NCBI GenBank assembly: GCA_963675495.1
Contig: OY776215.1
Coordinates: 608,001-672,000 of the forward strand
Length of the DNA stretch: 64,000 nt
Direction: 5' to 3'
DNA from: an uncultured Methanolobus sp.
GTDB taxonomy: Archaea; Halobacteriota; Methanosarcinia; Methanosarcinales; Methanosarcinaceae
The position numbers and the translations under genes are program-made. Below, one piece after another: positions 1-39,977 of this stretch. The notes under the pieces were generated by a model. That model saw only the letters and a program-made list of their open reading frames with translations. It searched no databases and was not told where the DNA came from. Numbering within the stretch: the stretch's first letter is position 1; every line of letters starts with the position of its first letter.

Positions 1-77
1 CGCTGCTTCGCGCGGGCGATAACACTACCTATGGCTATCTCCTCATTGAATGCGGGAATTACAGCTACTGTCGTCAT
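1..77 (-). CDS. 5' end of a family 2 glycosyltransferase (runs off the window start)
   Basis: Not in the ORF track. The minus strand reads MTTVAVIPAFNEEIAIGSVIARAKQ, the canonical GT2 N-terminus (IPAFNEE), with a GGTGG RBS-like element upstream. Confidence 0.85.
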   Translation of the reverse strand, partial: MTTVAVIPAFNEEIAIGSVIARAKQ

Positions 78-419
78 TGATCCAACCACCACTTTCCTTT
101 GTGCTGCGCAACCCCCGGCATTTGAAAATGCATTCGGGCGCAGACATCAATGTATATATGAGTTACATTTATCCAATATACTGCTTAAAGATTGCTTATT
201 GGATATAAAACTTTCCAAGTCATCATGTGAATTGTTTTATAAGTGATATAAAATATAACTAGTCGCATATATTTAGCAATTGTTCGCTTGTGTGCGAATG
301 TTTAACAGTGTGAAAATGAGAAACATCGGAAGTACACCATACTAACAGATCAATTAATTAAAAAGACTGCGCTATGGATCAACCTATAAAAGGAAAAAAA
401 GTCTCAGCCTGCTTATCCC

Positions 420-602
420 TTATACTGGGACCTGACGCTGAGGTACAGGGAAATCAGTGAGAGCGTGAATATTATTGTCAAATGAATTGGATCTTGCAGC
501 CAGGACACGGTATTTGCCACAGTAGGTGCCGCCGCCGTTCTCAGTGCAGGTCATGGATGTAGAACTTGCGTGCTCGCACTTGTCATAGTATTTGCATTTC
601 AT
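420..602 (-). CDS. Small Cys-rich hypothetical protein (60 aa)
   Basis: MKCKYYDKCEHASSTSMTCTENGGGTYCGKYR with 4 Cys. A GAGG RBS precedes the ATG at 602; the longer ORF-track start runs into the repeat motif and is unlikely. Confidence 0.6.
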   Translation of the reverse strand: MKCKYYDKCEHASSTSMTCTENGGGTYCGKYRVLAARSNSFDNNIHALTDFPVPQRQVPV

Positions 603-777
603 TTTTGTTCCTCTATATAGCCACATTATTAGTAATATGTTATATAGTTTTTTATTTATAAATTTAGATTGTGGAACAAGTGATCTTCGAGGAATTATAG
701 GATACATCTTAGGGTATTTGTGTGCATTGGTAAGATTTTTGGAAAAATGAAGGTGGTGTGGATACTTAGATGCAATA

Positions 778-806
778 CAACCATCCGCCGCATGCGGCAC
801 GGTCCA
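778..806 (+). repeat. Cassette-boundary hairpin motif copy 1
   Basis: CAACCATCCGCCGCATGCGGCACGGTCCA. Confidence 0.85.
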
Positions 807-877
807 TTGTCACTGATATAGAAAGACATATGCAGGAGCAACGCAAAGTGAAGAATCAGAATGATAAAATCCTGAGT

Positions 878-1164
878 TTAACAACGGTTAAATCTTTGCC
901 TTAATTTATCGTAAATCGAAGATCTATAATCTACAGCATAAAAAATAATATTGTGCATGACATCAATATCAAACACTATTCTGTATTTCCCCACCCTATA
1001 CCTATAATATTCGAAACACTGCAATTGCTTGGTATTAGCTGTAAAAGGATCAATTAAATTATGCACTCTATTGAACGAACGATCTTTTTGACATCAGCAG
1101 GATGCTTCTTACGAATTGCTTTTAAATCTTTCTTAATTAAAAACATTCGTAAAGATACCTTCAT
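878..1164 (-). pseudogene. RelE/ParE-family toxin, frameshifted near 1064-1070
   Basis: MKVSLRMFLIKKDLKAIRKKHPADVKKIVRSIE in one frame continues in another frame as HNLIDPFTANTKQLQCFEYYRYRVGKYRIVFDID (RelE motif YRxRVGxYRIVF). Lies directly downstream of an antitoxin. Confidence 0.75.
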
Positions 1165-1167
1165 ACC

Positions 1168-1347
1168 TCATTCTAATCCAAATTCATCTTTGAGCTCTTT
1201 AAGAGTACAAACATTGCCTTCTTTAAGATCTCTTTTTGCTTCCTCGATGCGTTTAATAGTCTTTGAGCTCAAAGGCATAGAGTCAACATCAGTAATTGTA
1301 GAACAAGATCTTTTCGTTTTAGAACATGGATGAGTATTTAGAACCAT
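1168..1347 (-). CDS. Archaeal RelB-like antitoxin (59 aa)
   Basis: Not in the ORF track. Reads MVLNTHP...PLSSKTIKRIEEAKRDLKEGNVCTLKELKDEFGLE, a typical archaeal antitoxin C-terminus. Its stop is 3 nt before the toxin ATG. Confidence 0.7.
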   Translation of the reverse strand: MVLNTHPCSKTKRSCSTITDVDSMPLSSKTIKRIEEAKRDLKEGNVCTLKELKDEFGLE

Positions 1348-1488
1348 TTATATACAATATCTCATGCACACTTAAATAAGTAGTACCAAAAATGGCTCTT
1401 TAGAAATCTCCAATATTCGAACTTCTCAGCGGTTCGTATTTTAAGAAGGTAGCAAATTTATCTTTCCGACCTGCTAATTTAAGCTTTA

Positions 1489-1577
1489 TTGTCGTAACAA
1501 TTATTGTTTAAACAATAATACGTAACATCTACCAGAATAGATTTACGACGTAGCTATGAACTATCAGGAATACAACG
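1489..1577 (+). repeat. 89-bp non-coding duplicated segment, copy A (contains a 20-bp perfect palindrome)
   Basis: Ungapped match to 4066-4154 with 7 mismatches. ATTATTGTTTAAACAATAAT at 1500-1519. Confidence 0.9.
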
Positions 1578-1607
1578 CAACCACCCCGCAAAAGGCGGCA
1601 CATTCCG
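1578..1607 (+). repeat. Cassette-boundary hairpin motif copy 2
   Basis: CAACCACCCCGCAAAAGGCGGCACATTCCG. Confidence 0.75.
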
Positions 1608-1689
1608 ACACCATAAAAGAACAGGACAAAACCGATATCCCATCAAAAATAGACCCACAAAAACATTTCCAGCTCCAAATACAAAAGAA

Positions 1690-1953
1690 TCAATATATTA
1701 CATCATGGTGATCATAATCAAGTATCATGATTGCTTTTTTATCCGCATCTATTTCATAGATCAGCACAAATGAAGAGTCAATATGTACCCTCCTTGCACC
1801 GTGCAGATCACCACGTAATGGTTTATAGTGATACGGATTCAAGATTATCTGTTGAACTTTCTTGCTGATAATATTCATCTGCTTAGGATTCTTTTTAGCA
1901 AGCTTCATGAATTTCTTATCAGCAAGCTCGGATACAACAACGCAATACTCCAT
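1690..1953 (-). CDS. RelE/YafQ/StbE-family mRNA interferase toxin
   Basis: 87 aa with NPYHYKPLRGDLHGARRVHIDSSFVLIYEID...HHDVIY; downstream of a small antitoxin. Confidence 0.85.
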   Translation of the reverse strand: MEYCVVVSELADKKFMKLAKKNPKQMNIISKKVQQIILNPYHYKPLRGDLHGARRVHIDSSFVLIYEIDADKKAIMILDYDHHDVIY

Positions 1954-1958
1954 TATGT

Positions 1959-2186
1959 TTACCCGTAGCGTTCAGAAAAATCACTTACATGGACAAATTT
2001 ACCCTTCCTGATATTGTCAAGTTTTTCCAGGTATTCCTGACTTGCTTCCGGTTCCCTGGATATTACACTCTCCATGAACATCTGTATCTGTTTGCTCATG
2101 CTCATACCATGTGATTTACACAGGGCAGAGAACTCCTTATATGTATCTTCATCCACATTGAAAGTCTTTAATACCATTGAGATCAC
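1959..2186 (-). CDS. Antitoxin (ribbon-helix-helix-like N-terminus)
   Basis: LKTFNVDEDTYKEFSALCKSHGMSMSKQIQMFM fits an RHH pattern. Ends 5 nt before the toxin start. Confidence 0.75.
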   Translation of the reverse strand: MISMVLKTFNVDEDTYKEFSALCKSHGMSMSKQIQMFMESVISREPEASQEYLEKLDNIRKGKFVHVSDFSERYG

Positions 2187-2191
2187 ACCAA

Positions 2192-2268
2192 TTATTTAAT
2201 ATTTAATAATCTTATTTAATGTTTAATAACATTATTTAATCATATTTAATCATATTTAATCATATTTA
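2192..2268. repeat. AT-rich short tandem repeats (TTTAAT units, CATATTTAAT x~3) upstream of the TA operon
   Basis: attatttaat atttaataat cttatttaat gtttaataac attatttaat catatttaat catatttaat catattta. Confidence 0.7.
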
Positions 2269-2359
2269 CCCCCATACATATCAAGTTTTTTCAATTGATC
2301 AAAATGATATAGATCATTTAAACTTTGTAGAAAGATTCTACTTTAAATAAGCTGCAATA

Positions 2360-2388
2360 CAACCATCCACTGCAGGCGGCACTATCCA
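2360..2388 (+). repeat. Cassette-boundary hairpin motif copy 3
   Basis: CAACCATCCACTGCAGGCGGCACTATCCA. Confidence 0.85.
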
Positions 2389-2499
2389 CAATTACTGCAA
2401 AAAAGAAGATATATAGCCTGCTGATCAAAGAACGATCTCCAGCATTATCAGCGTATTTTCCATAACACATAAATAGTACGGAATTAAATCATAATTATT

Positions 2500-3930
2500 A
2501 TGTTCCGTAATTTCATTAATCGTGTCCATGAACTGGAATTCCTTAACAGGGAATATAGTTCAAAAGATCTTTCTTTCACCGTCATCTACGGACGCAGGCG
2601 AGTAGGCAAAACAGAACTTATCCAGCAGTTTGTGAAAGACAAGCCCCATATCTTCTTTCTGGCGGACATGAGAGGCACACGATCCAATACCCTCAGATTC
2701 AGGAAAAAAGCTTCAGGCTTATTCGATGATATAGAACCTGCAGCAGAGGCATTTGATGATGTGTTCGAATACATAAGTAAAAAATGGAAAAGTTCCAAAA
2801 AGCTTGTCATAGTTATCGATGAGTTCTCCTATCTGGCACAGACCGATAGATCCATACCGTCAGTATTCCAGCTTATCGTTGATGAGATACTCAAAGGAGG
2901 ACATTTCCATCTGATACTCTGTGGCTCATCCATTTCCATGATGGAAAAAACAACTCTTTCCCATTCAAGTCCTCTTTATGGAAGGAGGACAGGACAGATC
3001 AAGGTCATGCCACTGAGTTTACGCCACATGACTGGTTTTTCCCCGGAATCAACACCAGAAGAGCTTTTAAAAATATATGGTGCAACTGGAGGAATTCCTT
3101 TCTACCTCAGATTCTTTGATCCTGGAAATGATCTTTATGAGAACATAGGACAACACATATTTTCCAAAGATGCAGTATTATATGCCGAAGGCGAGTTCCT
3201 TCTTCGCGAAGAATTGAGAGAGCCGGCAACTTACATGAACATCCTTTATTCCATCTCCAAAGGTAGCACAAAAGCAGGAGAGATCGCTGCTGGCGCTTTC
3301 ATTGAAACAAAGGATCTATCATACTATACAGATACTTTGATGAGGCTTGGCTTTATCAGGAAAGAGCACCCTGTTGCAGAAAAAACATCTACCCGTAAAA
3401 CGATCTACGTTATAGATGACCCTTTTCTGCGCTTCTGGTTCAGATATGTACTGATACATAGAGATTCCATAGAAGCAGGTGATAATTCGCATGCCATCCA
3501 GGACCTGGATAAGAGCTACGACCGTTACCTGGGGGAAACGTTCGAACAGGTATCCAAAGAGATCCTTACATACCTCAATTTACAGGATAAACTCCCTTTC
3601 AGGTTCAGATCCATAGGCAGACAATGGGGAAAGATACCTAATATACCAAAAGGTAAAAATGACTATGAAATTGACCTGGTGGCCCTTGATCAGGATTCAA
3701 AGAACATACTCTTCTGTGAATGCAAATGGCAGAAGCAGAAGGTCAATACAGATGTCTACTTCAACCTGAGAGAGAAAGCGTGTCATGTAAAGTGGTTCCC
3801 CGAGAGAAAAGAACACTTTGCACTTATCAGCAGATCGGGTTTCACAAAAAAGATGCATGAAATAGCAAAGCAGGAGAATGTTCTGTTACTTACCCTGCAT
3901 GATTATTTGTCCAGATCTTCTGCTGAATAA
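2500..3930 (+). CDS. Archaeal AAA ATPase (ATPase_2) with wHTH and DUF234 PD-(D/E)XK nuclease-like domain
   Basis: FINRVHEL, Walker A YGRRRVGKT, Walker B IVIDEF, LCGSS, PLYGRRT, DPFLRFWFRY, and EIDLV...FCECKW. Confidence 0.9.
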   Translation: MFRNFINRVHELEFLNREYSSKDLSFTVIYGRRRVGKTELIQQFVKDKPHIFFLADMRGTRSNTLRFRKKASGLFDDIEPAAEAFDDVFEYISKKWKSSKKLVIVIDEFSYLAQTDRSIPSVFQLIVDEILKGGHFHLILCGSSISMMEKTTLSHSSPLYGRRTGQIKVMPLSLRHMTGFSPESTPEELLKIYGATGGIPFYLRFFDPGNDLYENIGQHIFSKDAVLYAEGEFLLREELREPATYMNILYSISKGSTKAGEIAAGAFIETKDLSYYTDTLMRLGFIRKEHPVAEKTSTRKTIYVIDDPFLRFWFRYVLIHRDSIEAGDNSHAIQDLDKSYDRYLGETFEQVSKEILTYLNLQDKLPFRFRSIGRQWGKIPNIPKGKNDYEIDLVALDQDSKNILFCECKWQKQKVNTDVYFNLREKACHVKWFPERKEHFALISRSGFTKKMHEIAKQENVLLLTLHDYLSRSSAE

Positions 3931-3941
3931 GTTCAAGAATA

Positions 3942-3965
3942 CAACCTCACTGCAAAGGCAACACA
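3942..3965 (+). repeat. Cassette-boundary motif copy 4 (degenerate)
   Basis: (AATA)CAACCTCACTGCAAAGGCAACACA, 11 nt after the ATPase stop. The hairpin is eroded. Confidence 0.5.
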
Positions 3966-4009
3966 TAAAAATAATATTGTGCATTACGACTAAAAGGCGT
4001 AAGGGTAGA

Positions 4010-4044
4010 GAAAGCCCACGCACTTTAGTCATGGGAGCAGTCAC
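4010..4044 (+). mobile_element. IS200/IS605-family right-end remnant (no transposase or TnpB)
   Basis: GAAAGCCCACGCACTTTAGTCATGGGAGCAGTCAC resembles the typical AAGCCCACGACTTTAGTCGTGGG...TCAC subterminal hairpin and terminal TCAC. Confidence 0.65.
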
Positions 4045-4065
4045 AACCTATCAATTCATGCGTTG

Positions 4066-4154
4066 TTGTCATAACAATTATTGTTTAAACAATAATAAGT
4101 AACATCTACCAGAATAGATTTACGATGTATCAATGAACTATCAGGAATACAATA
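4066..4154 (+). repeat. 89-bp non-coding duplicated segment, copy B
   Basis: 82/89 identical to 1489-1577; palindrome at 4077-4096. Confidence 0.9.
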
Positions 4155-4183
4155 CAACCATCCGCCGAAGGCGGCACGGTTCA
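4155..4183 (+). repeat. Cassette-boundary hairpin motif copy 5 (best stem: CCGCC-GAA-GGCGG, outer AACC/GGTT)
   Basis: CAACCATCCGCCGAAGGCGGCACGGTTCA. Confidence 0.9.
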
Positions 4184-4265
4184 CAATTACTGAAAAAAGA
4201 TGAGTTATAGCCTGCTGATCAAAAAATATATATATATAAAAAATAAAAAAAATAATCAAAGGAAC

Positions 4266-4862
4266 TCAAAACATTATCTTTGCCTTTATCTGAGCTAATT
4301 CATGTTCTATTGTTGAGATCCTCTCGTCAAGATGAGACCTGAAATCATCCCTGTTCAACCGAACCTCGGATGCTATTTCTGTTCTGTTTTGGTCAATCTT
4401 TTCACCAACCACATCGATCTTATCACCCAATCCATCGATCTTCCCACTTACGACTTCGACTTTACTGCCAACCGAATCAACCCCATCACCGACCCTGTCG
4501 ATCTTCTGCCCGAGATTCGAGTTCATTTCACGCATATACCTCACAGCTGCATCCATTCGCTCATAAGTTGCTGTGGTCAGATCCTCGTCTCTGACTATCT
4601 CAAATGTACCATACTCGCCAGTTGCTTTTGTGTAGACTACATCGATATTCGTTACACGTATAGGATATTGAGTGATGTTGACTTTTTCAAGTAACTCCCT
4701 GATGCTGCCCTCTGTACCCTCACAGACAACTTGCACCGTGCCATCATCGAGATTTTTGACATATCCATTAAGAGCCAGATCAAAAGCTATTTCGTCAATG
4801 AAATCCCTGAAACCTGCTTTCTGAACTCTGCCATGTATTATGACCTCTGCACGCTTCTTCAT
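4266..4862 (-). CDS. Acylphosphatase domain fused to a C-terminal heptad-repeat coiled coil
   Basis: HGRVQKAGFR and GYVKNLDDGTVQVVCEG acylphosphatase motifs, then KIDRVGD/GVDSVGS/KVEVVSG/KIDGLGD/KIDVVGE heptads. Probable start MKKRAEV at 4862. Confidence 0.8.
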   Translation of the reverse strand: MKKRAEVIIHGRVQKAGFRDFIDEIAFDLALNGYVKNLDDGTVQVVCEGTEGSIRELLEKVNITQYPIRVTNIDVVYTKATGEYGTFEIVRDEDLTTATYERMDAAVRYMREMNSNLGQKIDRVGDGVDSVGSKVEVVSGKIDGLGDKIDVVGEKIDQNRTEIASEVRLNRDDFRSHLDERISTIEHELAQIKAKIMF

Positions 4863-4942
4863 AAGAGTTGATTTTTCCTGAAGCAATATAAACGTTATTA
4901 TCATATCTCATTAACAAGCCAGAAATAATCACAGAACTTAAA

Positions 4943-4971
4943 CAACCACCCGCCGCAGGCTGCACACACCA
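4943..4971 (+). repeat. Cassette-boundary hairpin motif copy 6
   Basis: CAACCACCCGCCGCAGGCTGCACACACCA. Confidence 0.8.
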
Positions 4972-5015
4972 TCACCAAAAATGTAAAAAGAAAATCCGGA
5001 GAATAGTCTTTGCCC

Positions 5016-6314
5016 TCATTCAAGCAACCATTTCCACACAGGCCTAACACTTATTTTCCTGCCATCCATTTCAAGCGCTTCCTCCGTATCTTCCGTGAGT
5101 ATGAGACCTTCTTTCAGCCCGTACTTATCCATAGCTTCCAGAAGTCCTGCTATCTCTCTTTTTTCATTTGACCATTCCATCCTCTGAGTAACCTGTATTG
5201 CTTTTATGATATGTCCCTTCTCCATCAATATGAAATCACACTCATTCTTATCCACGTGGTAATAGATATCATGCCCCCTGTTTTTCAATTCAAGGAATAC
5301 AATGTTCTCAAGTGTTTTGCCTGTATCCTTTGAGAATTTGAAGGCAAGAACGTTCATCAGTCCTGTATCTATGATATAGGCCTTCTTCTTTGAATATATC
5401 TGCTTTTTAAGAGAGTAATCAAAAACATTGATCGTAAAGATCAGATAAGAGTTCTCCAGATGATCTATGTAATTTTTCACTGTTGTCTGGCTGCCAATTC
5501 CTAGGACGTTCTTTAACCTGTTATAGCTTATCTCAGTTCCGGGATTAGTTATCAGATAATACGCAAGGGATCTTATTGCAGTCTCGTCCTTAATACCATA
5601 TCTTGCGATAATATCCCTGTACAGGATGTTATCATAGAGGTTCCTGATTATGTCCTTATTTCCGTATTTATAATACTCTGGAATGCCGCCATTTTCAAGA
5701 TACTGACTGAATTCTTTTTTGATCCTTGCTCTCTCCTCTGTCAGATAAAACTCCTTTTCAGTTTCTATGCCTTTTGAACCCATCAGCTCTTTGAATGAGA
5801 AAGGATAGAGTTCAAGTTTCACATGTCTTCCGGTAAGCTTTGTCCCCAGCTCCCTGCTCATCAAAGAAGAATTTGAGCCGGTGATGTAGAATTTGAAACC
5901 CCGGTCATACATCCGCCGTATGAATGCTTCCCAGTTGGGTATGTTCTGTATCTCATCAAAGAAAAAGACCTTGCTCTCTTTTGATGTTTCCAGAAATGAT
6001 TCATACAGGGCATTGAAATCGCCTACTTTGAAGTCAAGCAACCTTTCATCTTCAAAATTCATGTAATATATGTTATCTTCCGGATAGTATCTTTTTTTTA
6101 TCTGTTTTAAAAGGGTGCTTTTACCCGCACGTCGCAGACCAGTGATAACCACTATATGAGGAATTTGGGAGTAACTTTCTATTTCTTCAAGCTTCTGGCG
6201 CTTTATTGTCGGCACCTCCATTTCAAACTCCTGCTTTTGCTCTGCTATAAGCTCCTTTATCTGCATAATATCCATAAATTGCATTCTGTGATGAATGCAT
6301 ATATATATTTCCAT
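5016..6314 (-). CDS. AAA_14 ATPase with DUF4143 domain
   Basis: GLRRAGKST, FFFDEIQN, ITGSNS, LTGR, GGIPEY, KKAYIIDTGL, LENIVFLEL, ECDFI. The true start may be a downstream Met (~6269). Confidence 0.9.
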   Translation of the reverse strand: MEIYICIHHRMQFMDIMQIKELIAEQKQEFEMEVPTIKRQKLEEIESYSQIPHIVVITGLRRAGKSTLLKQIKKRYYPEDNIYYMNFEDERLLDFKVGDFNALYESFLETSKESKVFFFDEIQNIPNWEAFIRRMYDRGFKFYITGSNSSLMSRELGTKLTGRHVKLELYPFSFKELMGSKGIETEKEFYLTEERARIKKEFSQYLENGGIPEYYKYGNKDIIRNLYDNILYRDIIARYGIKDETAIRSLAYYLITNPGTEISYNRLKNVLGIGSQTTVKNYIDHLENSYLIFTINVFDYSLKKQIYSKKKAYIIDTGLMNVLAFKFSKDTGKTLENIVFLELKNRGHDIYYHVDKNECDFILMEKGHIIKAIQVTQRMEWSNEKREIAGLLEAMDKYGLKEGLILTEDTEEALEMDGRKISVRPVWKWLLE

Positions 6315-6393
6315 TTAAAATGGAGATTATTACTCACAAATTGTCATTGATAATGGAGATTATAGCAATGATATCTCCATTTAAAATAGAGAC
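6307..6393. promoter_or_regulatory. Three imperfect palindromic boxes (TCTCCATTTAAAATGGAGA-like) at 33-bp period
   Basis: ATGGAGAT starts at 6320 and 6353, ATAGAGAC at 6386. The boxes overlap the 5' region of the ATPase gene. Confidence 0.55.
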
Positions 6394-6444
6394 ATTGCAC
6401 TCCAAAGTACATTATACGAAAAGTCTATGAACGCATATCGACCA

Positions 6445-6474
6445 AAACCATCCCGCTGCAGGCGGCACAGTCCA
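6445..6474 (+). repeat. Cassette-boundary hairpin motif copy 7
   Basis: AAACCATCCCGCTGCAGGCGGCACAGTCCA. Confidence 0.85.
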
Positions 6475-6577
6475 TCAATACTGTTGTAACAAGAATGTAT
6501 AGATATTCTCTAGGCAATGTTGCAAAGAAAAAAGAACATAAACACATGTGATCAGTTATGATCTTTATTGCATCCAT

Positions 6578-7858
6578 TCACTCAAGCAGCCATTTCCACA
6601 CAGGCCTCACGAAGATCTTCCTTCCATCCCTTTCGATCATATCTTCAGTATCCTTTGTAAGTATGAGACCTTCCTCCAGATCATAGGTCTGCATTGCTTC
6701 ACGTAAACCTTCGACCTCACGTTTTTTGTTGTCCAGGTTCAGCTCCTTTGTCACCTGAATAGCATTGGTTATTTTATTATCTGCTTTTATCAGAAAATCG
6801 CACTCATATGTACCTTTATGGTAGTAAACTTCGTTCTGTCTTCTTATAAGCTCTATAAAGATCAGGTTTTCAAGCAGTCTGCCGTAGTTCTCTGAGAACT
6901 TGAAAGACACTGCATTTATCATACCAGTATCAAGGCAGTATATCTTCTTTGGATTTGCAAGTTGTTTCCTGAGAGAATAATCAAATTTTTTGATGGAATA
7001 TAATAAGTATGAGTCTTCTGCGTAGCTCAGGTACTCTTTTACCGTATCTGCAGATATTTCCAAGACATTTGCTATGCTGTTGTAAGAAAAAGGCTTGCCA
7101 ACATTTGAAATAATGAAGTATAGCAAGTTTATTACATCCCTGTTATTCCTCAGTTTATGTGGAAAGATTATGTCTTTCAGGTATATGGTCTCATAATAAT
7201 TTTTTAAAAGCTCTTCTTTGATGTCATTGTCCCCTTCAAGAGAGATCCGGGGGAAAGAACCATGCTTGAGATATTCCTCGAACTCCAGTTTTTTCTCACC
7301 GGATGTCAGCCTTTTGAGTCCTTTGAAATCCAGATATTCTTTAAAGGTTAGTGGAAAGACCGTTACTGCAAGGTATCTTCCTGAAAGACGTGTGATGGTC
7401 TTCTTTTTAAGTAGGGATGATGTGGAACCCGTCAATACAAATTTCAGGCGCTTGTCAGTATCGTATAATATTTTCAGTGTCTGCGTCCAGTACCTGAAGT
7501 TCTGGACCTCATCAAGAAAAATGTAGTATCTTTCTTTTTTCGTTGCCGCGATATGATCTTCAATGATACCCGAAAGAAGAACGGCACTCTCTGACCTGCT
7601 CTGGAACACCGGTTCATCAAGGTTTATGTAAAGTACCGACATGGCCTCGTTTTCAGGCAGTTCAAGACTGCTGATAAGCTGGTATATGAGAGTTGACTTG
7701 CCCGTCCTTCTTGCACCAAGTATTAGCAGTATCTCTTCCGTACCCATATATTTGGCTAAACGTGGATAATAATGAAGACGAGGTATACTCGTACTGTAAC
7801 TTTTTCCGAACCACCCCGGATTCTGCTTTTCCAGCACTTCTTCGATCAGTTGTTCCAT
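6578..7858 (-). CDS. AAA_14 ATPase with DUF4143 domain (paralog of 5016-6314)
   Basis: GARRTGKST, IFLDEVQN, LTGSTS, LSGR, KKIYCLDTG, LENLIFIEL, ECDFL; shares the C-terminus DGRKIxVRPVWKWLLE. Confidence 0.9.
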   Translation of the reverse strand: MEQLIEEVLEKQNPGWFGKSYSTSIPRLHYYPRLAKYMGTEEILLILGARRTGKSTLIYQLISSLELPENEAMSVLYINLDEPVFQSRSESAVLLSGIIEDHIAATKKERYYIFLDEVQNFRYWTQTLKILYDTDKRLKFVLTGSTSSLLKKKTITRLSGRYLAVTVFPLTFKEYLDFKGLKRLTSGEKKLEFEEYLKHGSFPRISLEGDNDIKEELLKNYYETIYLKDIIFPHKLRNNRDVINLLYFIISNVGKPFSYNSIANVLEISADTVKEYLSYAEDSYLLYSIKKFDYSLRKQLANPKKIYCLDTGMINAVSFKFSENYGRLLENLIFIELIRRQNEVYYHKGTYECDFLIKADNKITNAIQVTKELNLDNKKREVEGLREAMQTYDLEEGLILTKDTEDMIERDGRKIFVRPVWKWLLE

Positions 7859-7895
7859 AATGACTTATTTGTTTTTCAAGTTAAATAAAATTACC

Positions 7896-7944
7896 GATTA
7901 TAATCTATGATTTACAGCAGAAATTCAGATTATAATCGATGATT
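7896..7944. promoter_or_regulatory. Two GATTATAATC palindromic boxes 32 bp apart upstream of the ATPase
   Basis: GATTATAATCTATGATT at 7896 and GATTATAATCGATGATT at 7928. Confidence 0.5.
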
Positions 7945-7989
7945 GTGTGATATATATACTTCAATCACAAACTTCCATATAAAAAATAA

Positions 7990-8016
7990 TAACTCCGCCG
8001 CGGGCGGCACAGTCCA
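7990..8016 (+). repeat. Cassette-boundary hairpin motif copy 8
   Basis: TAACTCCGCCGCGGGCGGCACAGTCCA. Confidence 0.8.
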
Positions 8017-8084
8017 TCCATTATACATAAAAACAATTATACTGACAAATTACAGATCAAAAAAAAAAGCCCAAAACTAACCTT

Positions 8085-8669
8085 TCACTCCAAAGGCTCA
8101 TAACTAAAACCAAAACCAAGGTCCTTCAGAGCCAGAAGTGCCATGAACATCACACAGAAGATGAAGAACACCGACACGAAACAGGCGAAATTATAGTAGA
8201 AGAAGTCCACGCCTGAGAGTCTGACGTTCATAACGGCAAAGATGCTAAGTGGTTCATTATAGAACGGATACAGGTAAGTAAGGCCACCATCAGCGATGTC
8301 ATCCAGAAGCAGATGGGACAGGAAAGCTGCCTCTGCGAATATCCCCAGGGATGAGGCTTTTGATGTGTTCCTGTATAATACGTATCCAAGCATAAATGCA
8401 AGTATGAATGCCACCAGACCAAAAAGAAGTGAATGTGTAGGAACCGGACCTATCAGTGTATGACTCAGGTTGCCGTGGAGTACATAGTTCCACACCGCAG
8501 GCACGTCCGGGAACACCGAACCCACACTGCCGACAACAAACAATAAGCTCAGGTGTTTTACATCCTTAAAGCTCATCTCCTTGCGAAAGCCACTTCCTGC
8601 AATTGCAAAGATCCCTACAAGGGAAATGCAGAATATGAAGAACGCAAAGTGGAACGCTGGATATGGCAT
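8085..8669 (-). CDS. Membrane metal-dependent hydrolase (YdjM/DUF457-like), type B
   Basis: N-terminal H, GSVFPD, THSLLF, SHLLLDD, YLYPF; several TM segments. Confidence 0.75.
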   Translation of the reverse strand: MPYPAFHFAFFIFCISLVGIFAIAGSGFRKEMSFKDVKHLSLLFVVGSVGSVFPDVPAVWNYVLHGNLSHTLIGPVPTHSLLFGLVAFILAFMLGYVLYRNTSKASSLGIFAEAAFLSHLLLDDIADGGLTYLYPFYNEPLSIFAVMNVRLSGVDFFYYNFACFVSVFFIFCVMFMALLALKDLGFGFSYEPLE

Positions 8670-8764
8670 ATACTAGTATACAAATCAAATATATATAAAT
8701 ATGATGTTAACACCGACATCTTATGAAAAACAATAAATCACCCCATCCACAATACTAACAGCAA

Positions 8765-9289
8765 ATGTTCATCTTCGGCCACATAGGCATAACCCTTGGA
8801 ATACTCACTCTCCTAAAACAGCATCCTGCACTCTCAAAGATGCCCACGTCCCTCTATGTGGTCGCCTTTGGCGCCATGCTACCCGACCTTATAGACAAAA
8901 CCCTTGGAGAGGTCATCTTCGCAAACTCCATAGGCAACGGAAGGATCTACGGACACACGCTGCTCTTCTGCCTGCTGTTACTCCTTACCGCAATTCACCT
9001 TTACAAGAAAAAAGAAGACAAACGTCTGCTCATCATCCCTGCTGCCAGCTTCCTGCATCTTATGGAAGACCGGCTCTGGATGACACCACAGACACTTTTC
9101 TGGCCACTGATGGGATGGCAGTTCCCTGACGGTTACTACTCAACAGGTATACTGGACTATTTCCTGGGGATCTTCAGGAATGCATACACACCTGCACTAA
9201 GTTATGTCTTTGTTTCTGAGATCATAGGCATAAGCATACTATGTATTGCAGGAATCGCTCACTTTAAAAAATCAAAAATAACACACTAA
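8765..9289 (+). CDS. Membrane metal-dependent hydrolase (YdjM-like), type A
   Basis: FGHIG, GAMLPDLIDK, GRIYGHTL, HLMED, LFWP. Confidence 0.8.
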   Translation: MFIFGHIGITLGILTLLKQHPALSKMPTSLYVVAFGAMLPDLIDKTLGEVIFANSIGNGRIYGHTLLFCLLLLLTAIHLYKKKEDKRLLIIPAASFLHLMEDRLWMTPQTLFWPLMGWQFPDGYYSTGILDYFLGIFRNAYTPALSYVFVSEIIGISILCIAGIAHFKKSKITH

Positions 9290-9586
9290 TATGATCCCCA
9301 TCCATAGTGTACCTGATAATACAAGGAAGCAGGAAGCATATATCTCAATTCAGCACATACACATTTCCAGACTTATCCAAACCGGTTACATGCATAGACT
9401 AAATAAAATTAAGAAGATAACAGAAAGATTTATACTATCGCATATGATAATATAAACAAAATATATTATGTTGCACATAAATATTCCAGAAACAATGTTC
9501 ATCCTGAAGCGCGACCCCGGAACAAAAAAGTTATAATTGCATAAAAATCTGCTTATGAACATATCACTGACCCACCGGCAGGAAAA

Positions 9587-12500
9587 ATGAAGACGAGGAT
9601 CGAAGAGAACATCAAGCTCAAAAAACTTGTTACATACTCAGAGGAACTCTTCCAAAGCCCCGCTGACACAATAGACTATCAAAGAATAACCGATGGGATA
9701 CTTGACCTGTCCGAAGCAAAATATGCGGTTTTCAATCTGTTTGAAGAAAAAACAAATTCCTTTTTTACAAAAGCTGTTTCAGGCCCACTTAACGATGTCA
9801 AAAGAATCTATTCGATGATGGGATTCAACCCTGAAGACAAGGGATGGAAAAGGAATCCTCATCTTGCAAAAAAAATTCAAAACCGCAATATCACCCGTTT
9901 TTCTGCTTTTCATGAACTGACCGGAGAACAGATTCCGAAAAAGACCGCAATACTTATGGAAAGAACCTTCGGTGCAGGAGAGACAATTGTAGCAAATATA
10001 TTCAAAGACAATATCAATCTGGGTTATTTCATATTGGTGATGGCTTGCGGAAAACTACTGACCAATGAAGACCTCATCGAAGTCTACACCCGGCAGGTAG
10101 GCCTCTTACTGGACCGGAAAAAAGTAGAAGAAGAGCTTCAATTTCAGTTCAGGTTCCAGAAGATGGTCTCTGAGATATCGGCTTGTTTTGTAAGTGTACC
10201 TGATAAAGAACTGGATAGTATAGTTGATGAGGCACTTAAGAAATGTGCCGTACTGTTTGAAGTCGATCGGGCCCACATATTTCTTTTTTCAGAAAATAGA
10301 ACAAAGATAAGCATTACCAATGAATGGTGCACACAGGGAATAGAATCCCATATAGACAATGTACAGGATCTACGCCTCAACGATTTCCCATGTTTTGAAG
10401 AGATCATAAGAAAGAACGGATACTTGCATGTACCGGATCTTGACAAACTCCCCCCTGAAGCAGATACTGAAAAGGACGTGCTCAAAACACATTCAATTCG
10501 ATCACTTCTGGACATACCCCTTACAAAAGATGGAAAAATTGTCGGCATCATGGGATTTGATGCTACCAGTAACAGGCATGAGTGGAGTGAAGAACAAATA
10601 TCACTTCTAAAAGTGGTAGCCGGGATAATAGCCAGTGCATTTGAAAAGAAATATGAAACTGAAGAATTGATCAATCGGGAGATGCAACTCAATAACGCCC
10701 AGAGGATCGGACACACAGGAAGCTGGGAGTTTGACCTGAACTCAGGAATGGTTCATGCCTCGCAGGAAGCTCACAGAATATATGGACTGGAAAACAGATA
10801 CCTAACCGTAAGGGAAGTGCAAAGCGTCGTACTTCCTCAATACCGTTCAATGCTTGACAAAGCACTTTCCCGACTCGTTGAGGAAAATCATCCATATAAC
10901 GTAGAGTTCAGTATCAAAAAACCAAACTCCGGTGTTGTTCGTCATATACACTCCGTGGCTGAGTATCATGCTGATAAAAATGTAGTGACCGGGACTCTCC
11001 ATGACATCACCGAGCGTAAGGAAGCAGAAGACAGGCTTGCTGAAGAGGAAGTCTGGAAGCACGTACTGATAGAGAATTCCATGGATGGGATCGTAGTACT
11101 CGATAAGACCGGCAAGGTCTACGAAGCTAACCAGCGCTTTGCAGACATGCTGGGTTATTCGCTGGAAGAGGTCAGAAAATTGTCACTATGGGATTGGGAT
11201 GCACAATTTACGCAGGAACAACTACTTCATATGGTCAAAAATGTGCATAAAGCCGAAGATTATTTTGAGGCATTGCACAAGCGTAATGATGGAACGGTAT
11301 TCTATGTTGAGATAAGTGCCATCAGCGCCATGTGTGGCGAACAGGAACTTGTCTTTTGCATGTGCAGGGATATCTCTGACAGGAAACTTTCTGAAGAAAA
11401 ACTGAAGAACAGGACACAAACACTGGACCTGGCACTGGAAGCAACCTGTGCCGGAATATGGGACCTTGACCTGACAACCGGCAACATACAATTGGAAGGG
11501 CTGGAGAGCTGGGAAATGATCACCGGATATACCATGAGTGACTTCCCTGATTTCAACCTTGAAATGTGGGCCGAAATGATACATAGAGATGATATAAGAT
11601 ATGTCACTCAAAAGTTACAGGATACAATTTCCGGTAAAGAACAACGCTATATAGCAGAGTACAGGATGCAACACAAAGAAGGTCACTGGGTCTGGGTTCG
11701 TGCTCATGGCAGGGTTGCAAGGTACGATAGTGCAGGCAATCCCCTCAACATGTACGGAACACATATCAGCATCAATGAAAGTAAGGTGGCTGAAGAAAAA
11801 GCGAAAGCTGCCAGCAGGGCAAAGTCAGAGTTCCTTGCCAATATGAGCCATGAGATACGCACCCCATTAAATGGTATCATTGGTTTTTCCGACCTGCTGA
11901 TGCACTCAGAACTCAAAGAGCAGCAATTGCAGCACATGCAAACGATACACACATCTGCCAATTCATTGCTTGACCTGATCAATGATGTACTGGACATTTC
12001 CAAGATAGAAGCCGGTAAACTGGAATTGGATACGGAAACTATCGACGTGATAGAACTGTGCGAACATATAACAGATATGCTAAAATACAGGGTCCATGAA
12101 AAAGGTCTTGAACTATTATTGAACATCTCACCACAAATACCACGTTATGTTGTGGCTGACCGCTTGAGATTGAGACAGGTGCTGGTAAATCTTTTAGGAA
12201 ATGCCATAAAGTTCACCGAGACCGGGGAAATTGAACTTAAGATTGAAGCTACTGGCAACGATCCAGGTAAGATGGAATTCACATTTTCCGTAAGAGATAC
12301 CGGAATTGGGATCGCAGAGGACAAACTGCCAAGGATATTCGATTCATTCTCACAGGCAGATGGATCGATCACCCGAAAATATGGAGGGACAGGACTTGGT
12401 CTTAGTATCTCTAATGAACTGCTGGAGAAAATGAACTCCAGACTCGAACTTCAAAGCAAAGAAGGGCAAGGAAGCAACTTCTATTTTACTGTATGCCTTC

Positions 12501-38921: not shown

Positions 38922-39869
38922 TTATGGCTTTGTAGAAATCCTCATTTGTATAATAAGTACAACCTTGACATACATGTCAAGGTTATGTACTAAGAGTTTT
39001 AGTTTGACTTCTTTCACTTGATTCCAATACTTTTTAGCCCTGATCTCTTCACTATATTTTCTTTTCAAAACAGAGAACATCGTTTCAACCAGGTTTCTTT
39101 TATGATACAATTCTTCATCAAATTCCCATACCATTTTTCTGCGATATATCATTAAATCACAGATTTAATGAGAGTTCCTGATTTTTAATCTGGAACATTT
39201 CCCTTTAATTCTCTTCCTCTTCCTTTGTCTCAAAGGAATCATAGCTATCGCTTCTAGTTGTTCTCTTGTTAGCGAATGTATGTCTTCTGAATCATATCCT
39301 TTGTCCATGACATAATACTTAGATCTGCGAGTTTTGTGGCATTGCTTCATTAATTTCATTGCATGTTTTGCATCATGCACAGGCTTACCTGATATCTTGA
39401 AACCAGTAACAATGAACTTTGCAGTATCAATGGAGATACTTGTTTTCAGGAAATATCTTCGTTTCTTTCCTGTTCTCCAGGAATAATAGTAACTACAGTG
39501 TCCACTACTAAACCCACTTGAATCAATAGCAGTGATCTCTATCTACTCTCCGCGTGAATAGAATAGTTTTAGTGTTTGCTGCAATAATCCAGTGAAGTAG
39601 ATAGATTTAATTCTTGTAATGAATTTATGCAGTGTAGTAAAATGTGGAACTTCTTTTAACCCAATTCTTGCTTTAACTTTATCCATCACTTCTACAAGTT
39701 CAACAATATCTCTATAATCTTCATCAAGATACTCTTTCAACAAAACCAATGTCAATAGCTAGTGTAGGGTATATTTCCTTTTAGAATATTTACAACTATA
39801 AATCCCAAGGTGTGAGTTTCCTGATACAGCTAATGCTGTATCAACAAACTTTAAGTACTTATTAGACAA
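38922..39869 (-). pseudogene. IS5-family DDE transposase, interrupted
   Basis: One reading frame from TTG 39869 carrying PHFTTL, TAIDSSG, HDA, MDKGYDS and [13 protein letters not shown]. Interrupted by TAG at 39759-61, TAG at 39543-45 and a 51-bp insertion containing TAA. Confidence 0.88.
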
Positions 39870-39977
39870 AACACAATCATCCCCTATGTGTTTTCTGTAG
39901 CAAGTAATACTCAGGGGATTTATCCTTTTTAAATTATTATGCTAAAATAAAATATGAAGTCGGTTTTCTACAGAGCC
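38926..39977 (-). mobile_element. IS5-family (ISH1-like) insertion sequence with TIRs and 8-bp target duplication
   Basis: TIRs GGCTTTGTAGAAATCC (38926-38941) and revcomp GGCTCTGTAGAAAACC (39962-39977), 14/16 identical. CATTTTAT flanks both sides (38918-38925, 39978-39985). Confidence 0.9.

Follow-up and report, generated by a model that had tools for sequence, protein, structure and literature searches.

A 64,000-nucleotide stretch of the genome of an uncultured Methanolobus (the window; positions 608,001-672,000 of a single 2.87-Mb contig) carries an array of eight same-direction copies of a short intergenic hairpin motif, with a single module of accessory sequence between each copy and the next. 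The motif is restricted to the genus, the array occupies a hotspot whose content varies from one Methanolobus genome to another, and homology between genomes often switches at the motif. We read the motif, with a probability of roughly 0.55, as a crossover point or junction through which modules that carry no integrase are gained and lost in Campbell fashion; given the anatomy of the array and the comparative data, a static and meaningless repeat is unlikely.

The copies in the window (Table 1) had been recognized in a preliminary description as eight intergenic sites in one orientation, and both points hold: sequence reading and repeat finding agree on the positions, all on the + strand (the eighth being 7988-8016), and 8 of 8 lie between open reading frames (ORFs). 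A covariance model, built on 21 genomic copies and used to search the whole genome, recovers all eight (E values of 6.9e-11 to 1.5e-4) and finds no further copy in positions 1-64000, in agreement with the earlier statement that the motif is confined to the array within this stretch. The consensus first written for it was less successful; the eight sites are real, but the pattern matches just two of them at three or fewer mismatches (none expected, from 100 shuffles), and most copies therefore depart from it. The core consensus is AACCA-YM-CGCC-GMA-GGCGG-CAC-NT-TCC, about 30 nt with a 5-bp stem and a 3-nt loop. Among 116 distinct copies, alignment positions 8-37 hold 1.0-1.9 bits each, with a sharp drop to 0.3-0.8 bits directly after TCC; the loop is mostly G-N-A, with G first in 101 of 115 copies and A third in 113 of 115. 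The repeat finder sorts the window copies into families D1, D3, D6, and D13.

Genome-wide, 22 motif matches were found at E values of 1 or less in the genome under study (G000; other G numbers denote the Methanolobus congeners compared, and L numbers the loci or stretches taken from genomes): eight in the window array (A1), eight in a second array (A2), and six elsewhere. A2 (genome positions 582,549-588,783, - strand) lies 20 kb upstream and is a mirror of A1. It also holds one unit per interval: HicBA twice, MNT/HepT, two more MNT genes, a DUF2683/ParE pair, and an ORF belonging to no family. One end of A2 is 109 nt past argG and the opposite end adjoins a radical-SAM/SPASM gene, giving the order argG, A2, radical-SAM/SPASM, an island of about 20 kb, the gene for a small Cys-containing protein (small-Cys gene), A1, and YdjM. 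The island contains dTDP-rhamnose genes, a flippase, glycosyltransferases, and one IS4-like DDE transposase; A1 (+) and A2 (-) both point away from this polysaccharide-biosynthesis island. Direction is uniform within each array (8 of 8 copies on one strand), and each array starts and ends with a motif, so that N modules are accompanied by N+1 sites. Motif copies stand next to four of the five AAA_14-type ATPase genes of the genome and three of its five small MNT genes. Near 600 kb the cumulative GC skew does not turn (its extremes are at about 1.72 and 2.82 Mb), so the opposite directions of the two arrays are not explained by the direction of replication; a replication-direction bias was rejected because there is no skew switch between the arrays.

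The radical-SAM/SPASM gene at the island-side end of A2 occupies genome positions 589,086-590,168 (L001 17086-18168). This gene and the 61-aa Cys ORF at the inner end of A1 look like a candidate maturase/precursor pair for a ribosomally synthesized and post-translationally modified peptide, split by the ~20-kb island.

The covariance model found motif matches in 31 of 35 congeners, as against 0 of 25 genomes of other genera in the family and order (in these searches stricter filters apply above 40 genomes). With one genome per species, an exact 22-letter pattern was found in 40 stretches: 34 from Methanolobus, two from metagenome-assembled genomes labeled "Methanosarcinaceae archaeon", and four single matches in unrelated taxa, which are taken as chance. 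Four exact-pattern matches in viral contigs cover only 21-22 model positions and are likewise taken as chance, and a phage collection gave no match; the search of plasmids gave one match, to an AAA_14 gene that lies on a Methanomethylovorans plasmid and is not accompanied by the motif. Copy number is zero in G017, G020, G021, and G025 and 1-38 in most genomes, with 38 in G032 and 69 in G012. Near the YdjM genes of the motif-free G020 and G021 there is no alternative repeat array. No earlier description of the repeat was found in the literature searched (on Methanolobus, archaeal integrons, miniature inverted-repeat transposable elements [MITEs], and repetitive extragenic palindromes [REPs]; PMC9668308, PMC12180501, PMC2958812), the supplements of which could list integron-type site clusters in Methanosarcinales.

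The hotspot on the YdjM side was followed through the genus by BLAST of window positions 1-9500 against 36 genomes and by re-mapping on 15 loci. The flanking sequence is conserved (left, window 2-298 and 489-661; right, 8083-9220), and the content that it encloses is variable. A comparison of gene content between the small-Cys gene and YdjM had been proposed in the preliminary description; across the genus this interval ranges from empty to many modules, and the modules are re-ordered and turn up at other loci as well. Two of the 15 loci are empty and motif-free, with 88 nt (G019) and about 140 nt (G025) between the small-Cys gene and YdjM. The other 13 have from one to about nine copies, which run in one direction relative to the small-Cys gene except at L016 11371-11421. 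The hotspot of G026 consists of one interval, with HicBA and part of an acylphosphatase gene bounded by one good and one degenerate motif; that of G033 has four motifs, and those of G008, G035, G012, and G010 have five to about nine. G035 has the same diverging pair of arrays (seven copies on the - strand at 617.9-637.4 kb and nine on the + strand at 659.0-673.8 kb, about 21 kb apart), and the island-side array end there adjoins ATPase_2-DUF234, followed by UDP-glucose dehydrogenase, epimerase, and flippase genes. A metagenome contig carries eight same-direction copies with HicBA/MNT/ParE modules between an epimerase gene and PheRS-beta. The argG gene is present in 36 of 36 genomes, and the order argG-array-island-small-Cys-array-YdjM is visible in G008, G026, G033, and G006. 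In G026, G006, G033, and G009 the motif that comes first after the small-Cys gene is orthologous, with a conserved left flank and a variable right flank. In G008, alone among the genomes inspected, the stretch between the small-Cys gene and the first motif contains (at L015 ~1800-2470) some 700 nt of tandem repeats with a period of about 110 nt (ATCTGCGTT.ATCTGCG...AACCACAGATGAACAC).

In several comparisons homology between genomes switches at the motif, directly after ...GGCGGCAC-NT-TCC(A). Module 6 of the window array (Table 1) is 91% identical in G008 and G035, and its neighbors in G008 differ on both sides; the likeness of G000, G008, and G035 extends across the upstream operators and the motif and is lost within about 3 nt of the end of GGCGGCACAGTCCA. 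At the opposite boundary of this module, G000 and G008 match from the hairpin onward, with different left neighbors. In G001 (about 90% identity), homology passes from module 1 into the motif and exits toward the YdjM flank. At a third locus, downstream of the fibrillarin gene, 10 of 17 genomes have the motif behind a conserved 3' untranslated region and are followed by either of two kinds of content, an observation that speaks for a junction at the motif. The acylphosphatase module is continuous from start codon to motif in six genomes, and its end is preserved in three decayed copies as well; G000 and G026 have in common an unusual T in the right arm of the motif stem. These boundaries fit a hairpin end that may belong to the module on its 5' side, with a putative exchange point just past TCC(A).

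We infer that recombination takes place at the motif. In the favored reading, circular or flanked modules would be inserted and lost Campbell-style at the core; exchange would take place at TCC(A) or immediately 3' of it, some 9-10 nt past the hairpin, and the hairpin-bearing part would remain with the module on its 5' side. Such a process accounts for the uniform direction, the N+1 sites, the genus-wide variable hotspots (motif-free when empty), the re-assortment of modules, the sharp 3' edge of conservation, and the link with selfish genes. The crossover might be carried out by a dedicated enzyme encoded in trans or, at almost equal odds, by host homologous recombination between repeats of about 50 nt. 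We regard as somewhat doubtful the view that the arrays form an independent integron-like capture system, in which paired platforms facing outward from the glycan island would use a 30-nt hairpin attachment site and a trans-encoded enzyme for moving toxin-antitoxin (TA) and defense modules. Such a system would cut about 9-10 nt 3' of the stem, in a geometry like that of HUH enzymes or relaxases, and an IS5-type MITE would have picked up one site and spread it in some genomes.

The preliminary description had presented the locus as a recombination-site array that mobilizes cassettes. The motif does mark the junctions of single-unit modules in a variable hotspot, but some breakpoints, and some modules, are independent of it, and a number of observations set out below weigh against a crossover at the motif. 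Any repeat lying between unrelated DNA will show homology that stops at its edges, and such a boundary on its own is no proof of crossover. Breakpoints had been predicted to fall at the motif; several homology switches do so, whereas a G001 edge at 1233 and contig edges at 4863 and 6274 are unrelated to it. G001, the closest relative, is without the ~20-kb island, the small-Cys gene, and most modules, and its deletion connects window position ~1233, within module 1, with the region upstream of the radical-SAM gene (L001 ~17066). Further events were seen in contigs of close relatives from two metagenomes (90% likeness threshold). In one of these, a 25-kb contig with a likeness of about 96% to the window, the module 6 gene has been replaced (4863 to 6274, with 266 other letters in its place), and some 1.7 kb of different sequence separates 6427 from 6449 at the beginning of motif 7. 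In another contig, 4863, in the acylphosphatase module, is fused to 6453, inside motif 7. These contig events, with one edge each at the motif, are a weak indication of exchange there, and the edge at 4863, the start of the acylphosphatase gene, may be an alignment failure. The joint 6330->8083 in the X6 contigs has only 21 letters on its shorter side and was not used, and parts of X5 and X6 that lack coverage were left uninterpreted. The empty hotspots have no motif at all, unlike the attI of integrons. The sequence ATACGCC is found in seven of eight A2 copies and in none of the eight A1 copies, and such homogeneity within an array would fit gene conversion as well as site-specific capture.

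Motif and genes can also be separated. The copy at 1,948,951 lies 43 nt past the fibrillarin gene and 82 nt ahead of an AAA_14-DUF4143 gene; its left flank is the conserved fibrillarin 3' untranslated region, and sequences diverge after TTCCAT. At this locus in 17 genomes, motif and AAA_14 gene are found together in four, the motif with a different gene in six, neither in four, and the AAA_14 gene without the motif in three (G010, G026, and G020). G020 is motif-free genome-wide, yet its AAA_14 gene here shares 89% identity with the G000 gene. Downstream of the inserted block of motif and AAA_14 gene, G000 has a partial second copy of the fibrillarin 3' end (about 160 nt; L004 7385-7546, genome ~1,950,385-1,950,546), and this duplicate points to Campbell-type integration through homology of the flanking gene rather than through the motif. 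Similar partial fibrillarin 3'-end fragments occur in G008 and G018. The orientation of HicBA relative to the motif is opposite in G000 and G026, which have in common only about 35 nt upstream of the start codon. A motif-free AAA_14 gene with 82% DNA identity to the window AAA_14-DUF4143 sequence is carried by pMETHO01, a plasmid of Methanomethylovorans hollandica (the match, in two pieces, extends over window 4321-7215), and an identity of this level indicates recent transfer between genera. On the plasmid (L128, 99,643-110,974) the gene stands beside a viperin-family radical-SAM gene and insertion sequence (IS) elements. This separability of motif and genes, together with the transposable carrier and the lack of an enzyme described below, keeps alive two rival explanations, a selfish repeat and an insulator or terminator.

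The selfish repeat finds its evidence in the dispersed copies. An ordinary repeat scattered over the genome had been named at the outset as the alternative to be feared; the motif is not scattered in G000, where 16 of 22 copies lie in the two arrays (the others are at 1,471,519; 1,948,951; 2,328,563; 2,806,849; and 2,857,402, with a weak one near 2,850,100), but it is dispersed in the relatives G006, G009, G012, and G032. In G006 and G009 there are at least 97 copies per genome, distributed along both strands of the chromosome. The 20 top-scoring copies of G006, aligned with 300-nt flanks, ride in a MITE of about 330 nt with inverted repeats GGCTCTGTAGAAATCC...GGATTTCTACAGAGCC, in which the core lies 74-91 nt inside the left end and a second GAA-triloop hairpin lies in the right half on the other strand; a terminal inverted repeat (TIR) is present on at least one side, at three or fewer mismatches, in 16 of the 20. 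The core sequence common to array copies and MITE extends to about 50 nt. Three of the six non-array copies in G000 have a MITE-type TIR within 85-175 nt. A degraded IS5-like element of about 1.05 kb is found in the window at 38,926-39,977 (TIRs GGCTTTGTAGAAATCC and GGTTTTCTACAGAGCC, with transposase ORFs in fragments on the - strand); the ends of the element agree with the TIRs of the hairpin-carrying MITE of the relatives, and its TIR occurs 25 times in G000 at three or fewer mismatches.

On such grounds the motif could be a small selfish repeat, a solo and TIR-less relative of the MITE or a REP-like sequence, tolerated between dispensable genes, with arrays as a by-product and at most accidental homology. 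A block of about 95 nt (motif plus spacer) is present or absent at fibrillarin independently of the AAA_14 gene, the arrangement of motif and gene is variable, and the stem is conserved as sequence and shows no covariation, as expected for recently related copies. This explanation is nevertheless quite unlikely. No TIR was found at three or fewer mismatches around the array copies (A1, A2, the arrays of G008, G010, G012, G033, and G035, and window 1-9000), and for these a plain MITE was rejected. A single direction in 16 of 16 array copies of G000, and in all but one of those in the 13 occupied hotspot loci, is not expected of independent insertions and is accompanied by no GC-skew switch between the two arrays; most genomes have some 2-40 copies, and neither G000 nor G009 has a Y1 transposase. 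The first site is orthologous across species: in the G006 hotspot a decaying solo core, orthologous to the G026 site, is followed 45 nt further on by an inserted MITE. MITE and array sites are therefore separate carriers of one sequence of about 50 nt.

No recombinase gene was found next to any array end examined. The first reading of the window held that no recombinase is encoded beside the array, and this is correct for the flanking genes of A1, A2, the G035 arrays, and contig L122. G000 has six matches to the tyrosine recombinase family PF00589 (248.6, 484.0, 495.3, 498.9, 862.5, and 2,353.7 kb), all at least 85 kb from the arrays; no tyrosine recombinase was found near the G035 arrays or in the stretches examined of the hotspot contigs of G008, G012, G010, and G033, and no serine recombinase (PF00239) in G000. 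Co-occurrence with a REP-associated tyrosine transposase (RAYT) or TnpA, suggested earlier, did not appear: Y1 HUH proteins (PF01797) have matches in 20 of 36 genomes and 6 of 14 control genomes and are absent from the motif-bearing G000, G009, G032, G035, and G026. Searches for Y2_Tnp (PF04986), Rep_1 (PF01446), and Viral_Rep (PF02407) gave no match in G000, nor in the 14 control genomes, and are uninformative. The trans-acting recombinase of the preliminary description was not found in these searches and is pure conjecture.

A folded single strand as the substrate, also part of that description, is not established by the comparison of copies. Stem pairing holds in 89% of cells, and compensatory stem changes number zero among 21 copies and zero among 116 distinct copies, a result that is neutral on the question of folding. 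The single-stranded DNA hairpin has modest stability (-5.5 to -8 kcal/mol; z -0.3 to -3.5). Rfam gave no relevant match at E values of 1 or less in window 1-10000 and in four loci with MITE or solo copies.

Read on the - strand, the hairpin precedes GGTTGTATT or GGTTGTTTAAG, and three of the eight window sites are terminator-like by a rule of hairpin plus T-run (nine terminator-like sites were found in the region, against 4.8 +/- 2.2 in shuffles). The motif could thus be a regulatory or insulating element, in which a hairpin with a T-rich tail on the strand of most module genes, or a palindrome bound by protein, would halt transcription or in some other way isolate the modules and adjoining core genes, and would be kept by selection at their boundaries. 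Copies lie 43-105 nt past stop codons, as at fibrillarin and modules 6 and 7, and the modules have operator-like palindromes of their own. Of 47 inter-motif intervals, drawn from 10 arrays, 29 have a largest ORF that runs antisense to the motif, 12 have one in the sense direction, and six have none; these counts are not independent, because homologous modules recur across genomes, and the excess of antisense genes (29 of 41 gene-bearing intervals) agrees with a regulatory role to that extent. Termination in Archaea is known to rely on oligo-T and not on hairpins, and a terminator needs no 30 nt conserved at 1.5-1.9 bits per position throughout a genus. Five of the eight window sites are not flagged as terminators, the gene direction is opposite in 12 of 41 intervals, and the motif is inherited with the module on whose promoter side it sits, not with the gene it would have to terminate. 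The N+1 anatomy and the motif-free empty hotspots are left unexplained, and we consider a regulatory element improbable.

Comparison with known systems bears on the identity of the site. An attC site is about 57-141 nt long, with paired R''-L''/L'-R' boxes and a consensus of RYYYAAC...GTTRRRY. The Methanolobus site has a 30-nt core with a 5-bp stem and a GNA triloop, and neither box was seen in the 116-copy consensus, in accord with the original view that the motif is not attC; a canonical attC or integron was rejected on site anatomy and on the lack of an adjacent integrase. The arrays otherwise resemble integrons and clusters of attC sites lacking an integrase (CALINs) in several respects: same-direction repeats between single-unit cassettes of 0.2-1.5 kb, N+1 sites, TA-rich and gene-less units, sites homogeneous within a host lineage, content variable between relatives, and, as in CALINs, no integrase in cis. 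They are unlike these in that the genes are mostly antisense, with their own promoters or operators, and the hairpin end lies on the promoter side of the gene; in addition, two arrays face away from a polysaccharide island, the empty platforms are free of sites, and no IntI was identified. According to PMC9668308, integrons and CALINs are reported in Archaea and TA systems are among the commonest annotated cassette functions; its main text mentions neither Methanosarcinales nor Methanolobus. A canonical integron remnant with overlooked attC sites, which would account for the same-direction sites, the cassette-sized units, the TA-rich content, and the gene-less cassettes, is highly improbable: the conserved unit, at 30-50 nt, has a 5-bp stem closed by a 3-nt loop, inspection by eye reveals neither R''/L''-L'/R' architecture nor RYYYAAC/GTTRRRY boxes, and the mostly antisense genes have promoters of their own and no integrase beside them.

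A dif site, as summarized in a section of PMC2958812, consists of two inverted arms of about 11 bp around a 6-bp spacer. When the core is read as 11-6-11, five of 11 arm positions are symmetric in the consensus, and Xer/dif or plasmid-borne dif (pdif) sites were rejected on this symmetry, the single direction, and the absence of a skew switch nearby. Integrative mobile elements exploiting Xer (IMEX) and pdif modules are similar in comprising recombinase-less modules, TA systems included, bounded by short conserved sites, where tandem accumulation through a host enzyme acting in trans is possible; the Methanolobus sites differ in all pointing one way instead of alternating, and in occupying several loci and not one terminus-linked site. 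REPs with RAYT were rejected because G000 has 22 copies, 16 of them in two arrays, and no Y1 protein occurs in G000, G009, G032, G035, or G026; IS200/IS605 elements or palindrome-associated transposable elements (PATEs) were rejected because there is one hairpin per junction and no Y1_Tnp in G000. With REPs, bacterial interspersed mosaic elements (BIMEs), and the IS200/IS605 PATEs the motif has in common a short GC-rich intergenic hairpin, and the hairpin plus about 10 nt to the boundary resembles a right end of the IS608 type; it is unlike them in its low, array-restricted copy number in G000 and in lacking left-end/right-end pairs or inverted BIME pairs. The IS5-family MITE of Methanolobus (TIR GGCTCTGTAGAAATCC) carries the ~50-nt core at a fixed position and orientation between its TIRs; the array copies are TIR-less, and in G006 the MITE was inserted independently beside the orthologous solo site. 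In Neisseria, dRS3/RS mosaic elements and minimal mobile elements are short repeats that punctuate variable segments between conserved genes, and their exchange is plausibly homologous. These differ in sequence and domain of life; the Methanolobus intervals are complete gene modules in a uniform direction.

The identities first given to the units of the window array stand for ParE/RelB, ATPase_2-DUF234, the acylphosphatase with coiled coil, and the two AAA_14-DUF4143 genes (all by Pfam) but not for unit 1, named as a TA pair, whose ParE-like match is sub-threshold (Pfam E value of 2.8e-4) and whose small ORF has no Pfam match (Table 1). A palindrome, ATTATTGTTTAAACAATAAT, at 1500-1519 in the promoter/operator region of module 1 is read as the putative operator of a TA operon. 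The gene-less module resembles module 1 over 118 nt at 87% identity, including this palindrome, and over 21 nt at 95% (repeat finder). Module 2 has homologs in nine other genomes at 80-87% DNA identity, and three 20-nt AT-rich tandem units lie upstream of its RelB/ParE operon (window 2191-2260). The module 3 gene is the sole annotated gene of the array that is co-directional with the motif. The palindromes before the AAA_14 gene of module 6 are of the ATCTCCATTTAAAATGGAGAT type, with a spacing of 33 nt. The flanks are as originally described, with GT2 genes and the 61-aa Cys ORF on the left and YdjM on the right, where a second YdjM-family gene (8765-9289) is divergent from its neighbor.

Table 1. 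Motif copies, modules, and flanking genes of the window array (window coordinates)
Feature	Position	Strand	Description
Left flank	420-605	-	Conserved 61-aa Cys-containing ORF, no Pfam family; transcription away from the array
Motif copy 1	778-806	+	First array site, on promoter side of small-Cys gene; E 6.3e-10
Module 1	807-1577	-	Weak ParE-like ORF 878-1066 and small upstream ORF
Motif copy 2	1578-1606	+	Covariance model E 2.0e-7
Module 2	1607-2359	-	ParE toxin 1690-1953, RelB-like antitoxin 1959-2186 (Pfam)
Motif copy 3	2360-2388	+	Degenerate left stem arm; E 2.6e-9
Module 3	2389-3941	+	ATPase_2-DUF234 "archaeal ATPase" gene 2500-3930 (Pfam)
Motif copy 4	3942-3970	+	Degenerate, without hairpin; repeat family D13; E 1.5e-4
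Gene-less module	3971-4154		Decayed copy of module 1, operator region retained
Motif copy 5	4155-4183	+	Best model match; E 6.9e-11
Module 5	4184-4942	-	Acylphosphatase with coiled-coil tail of 21-nt repeats, 4266-4904
Motif copy 6	4943-4971	+	Travels with acylphosphatase module on its left
Module 6	4972-6444	-	AAA_14-DUF4143 ATPase 5016-6314 and three operator-like palindromes at 6305-6395
Motif copy 7	6445-6473	+	Travels with AAA_14 module on its left; G008/G035 homology stops directly after ...CAGTCCA
Module 7	6474-7987	-	AAA_14-DUF4143 ATPase 6578-7858 (Pfam)
Motif copy 8	7988-8016	+	Last site, ~70 nt from YdjM stop codon; E 1.4e-5
Right flank	8085-8669	-	Conserved YdjM-family membrane protein gene

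On a conservative reading, Methanolobus has three conserved hotspots (on the argG side, on the YdjM side, and 3' of fibrillarin) that turn over TA and "archaeal ATPase" modules. Those on the argG and YdjM sides lie near a variable surface-polysaccharide island, and the genus-specific 30-nt marker makes such islands easier to find. The arrangement looks like a new integron-like way to stockpile accessory genes. If the motif is a true recombination site, Archaea would have a second type of cassette platform, one whose site differs from attC, and the system would offer a route to a new recombinase as well as a natural docking site for genetic tools in methylotrophic methanogens.

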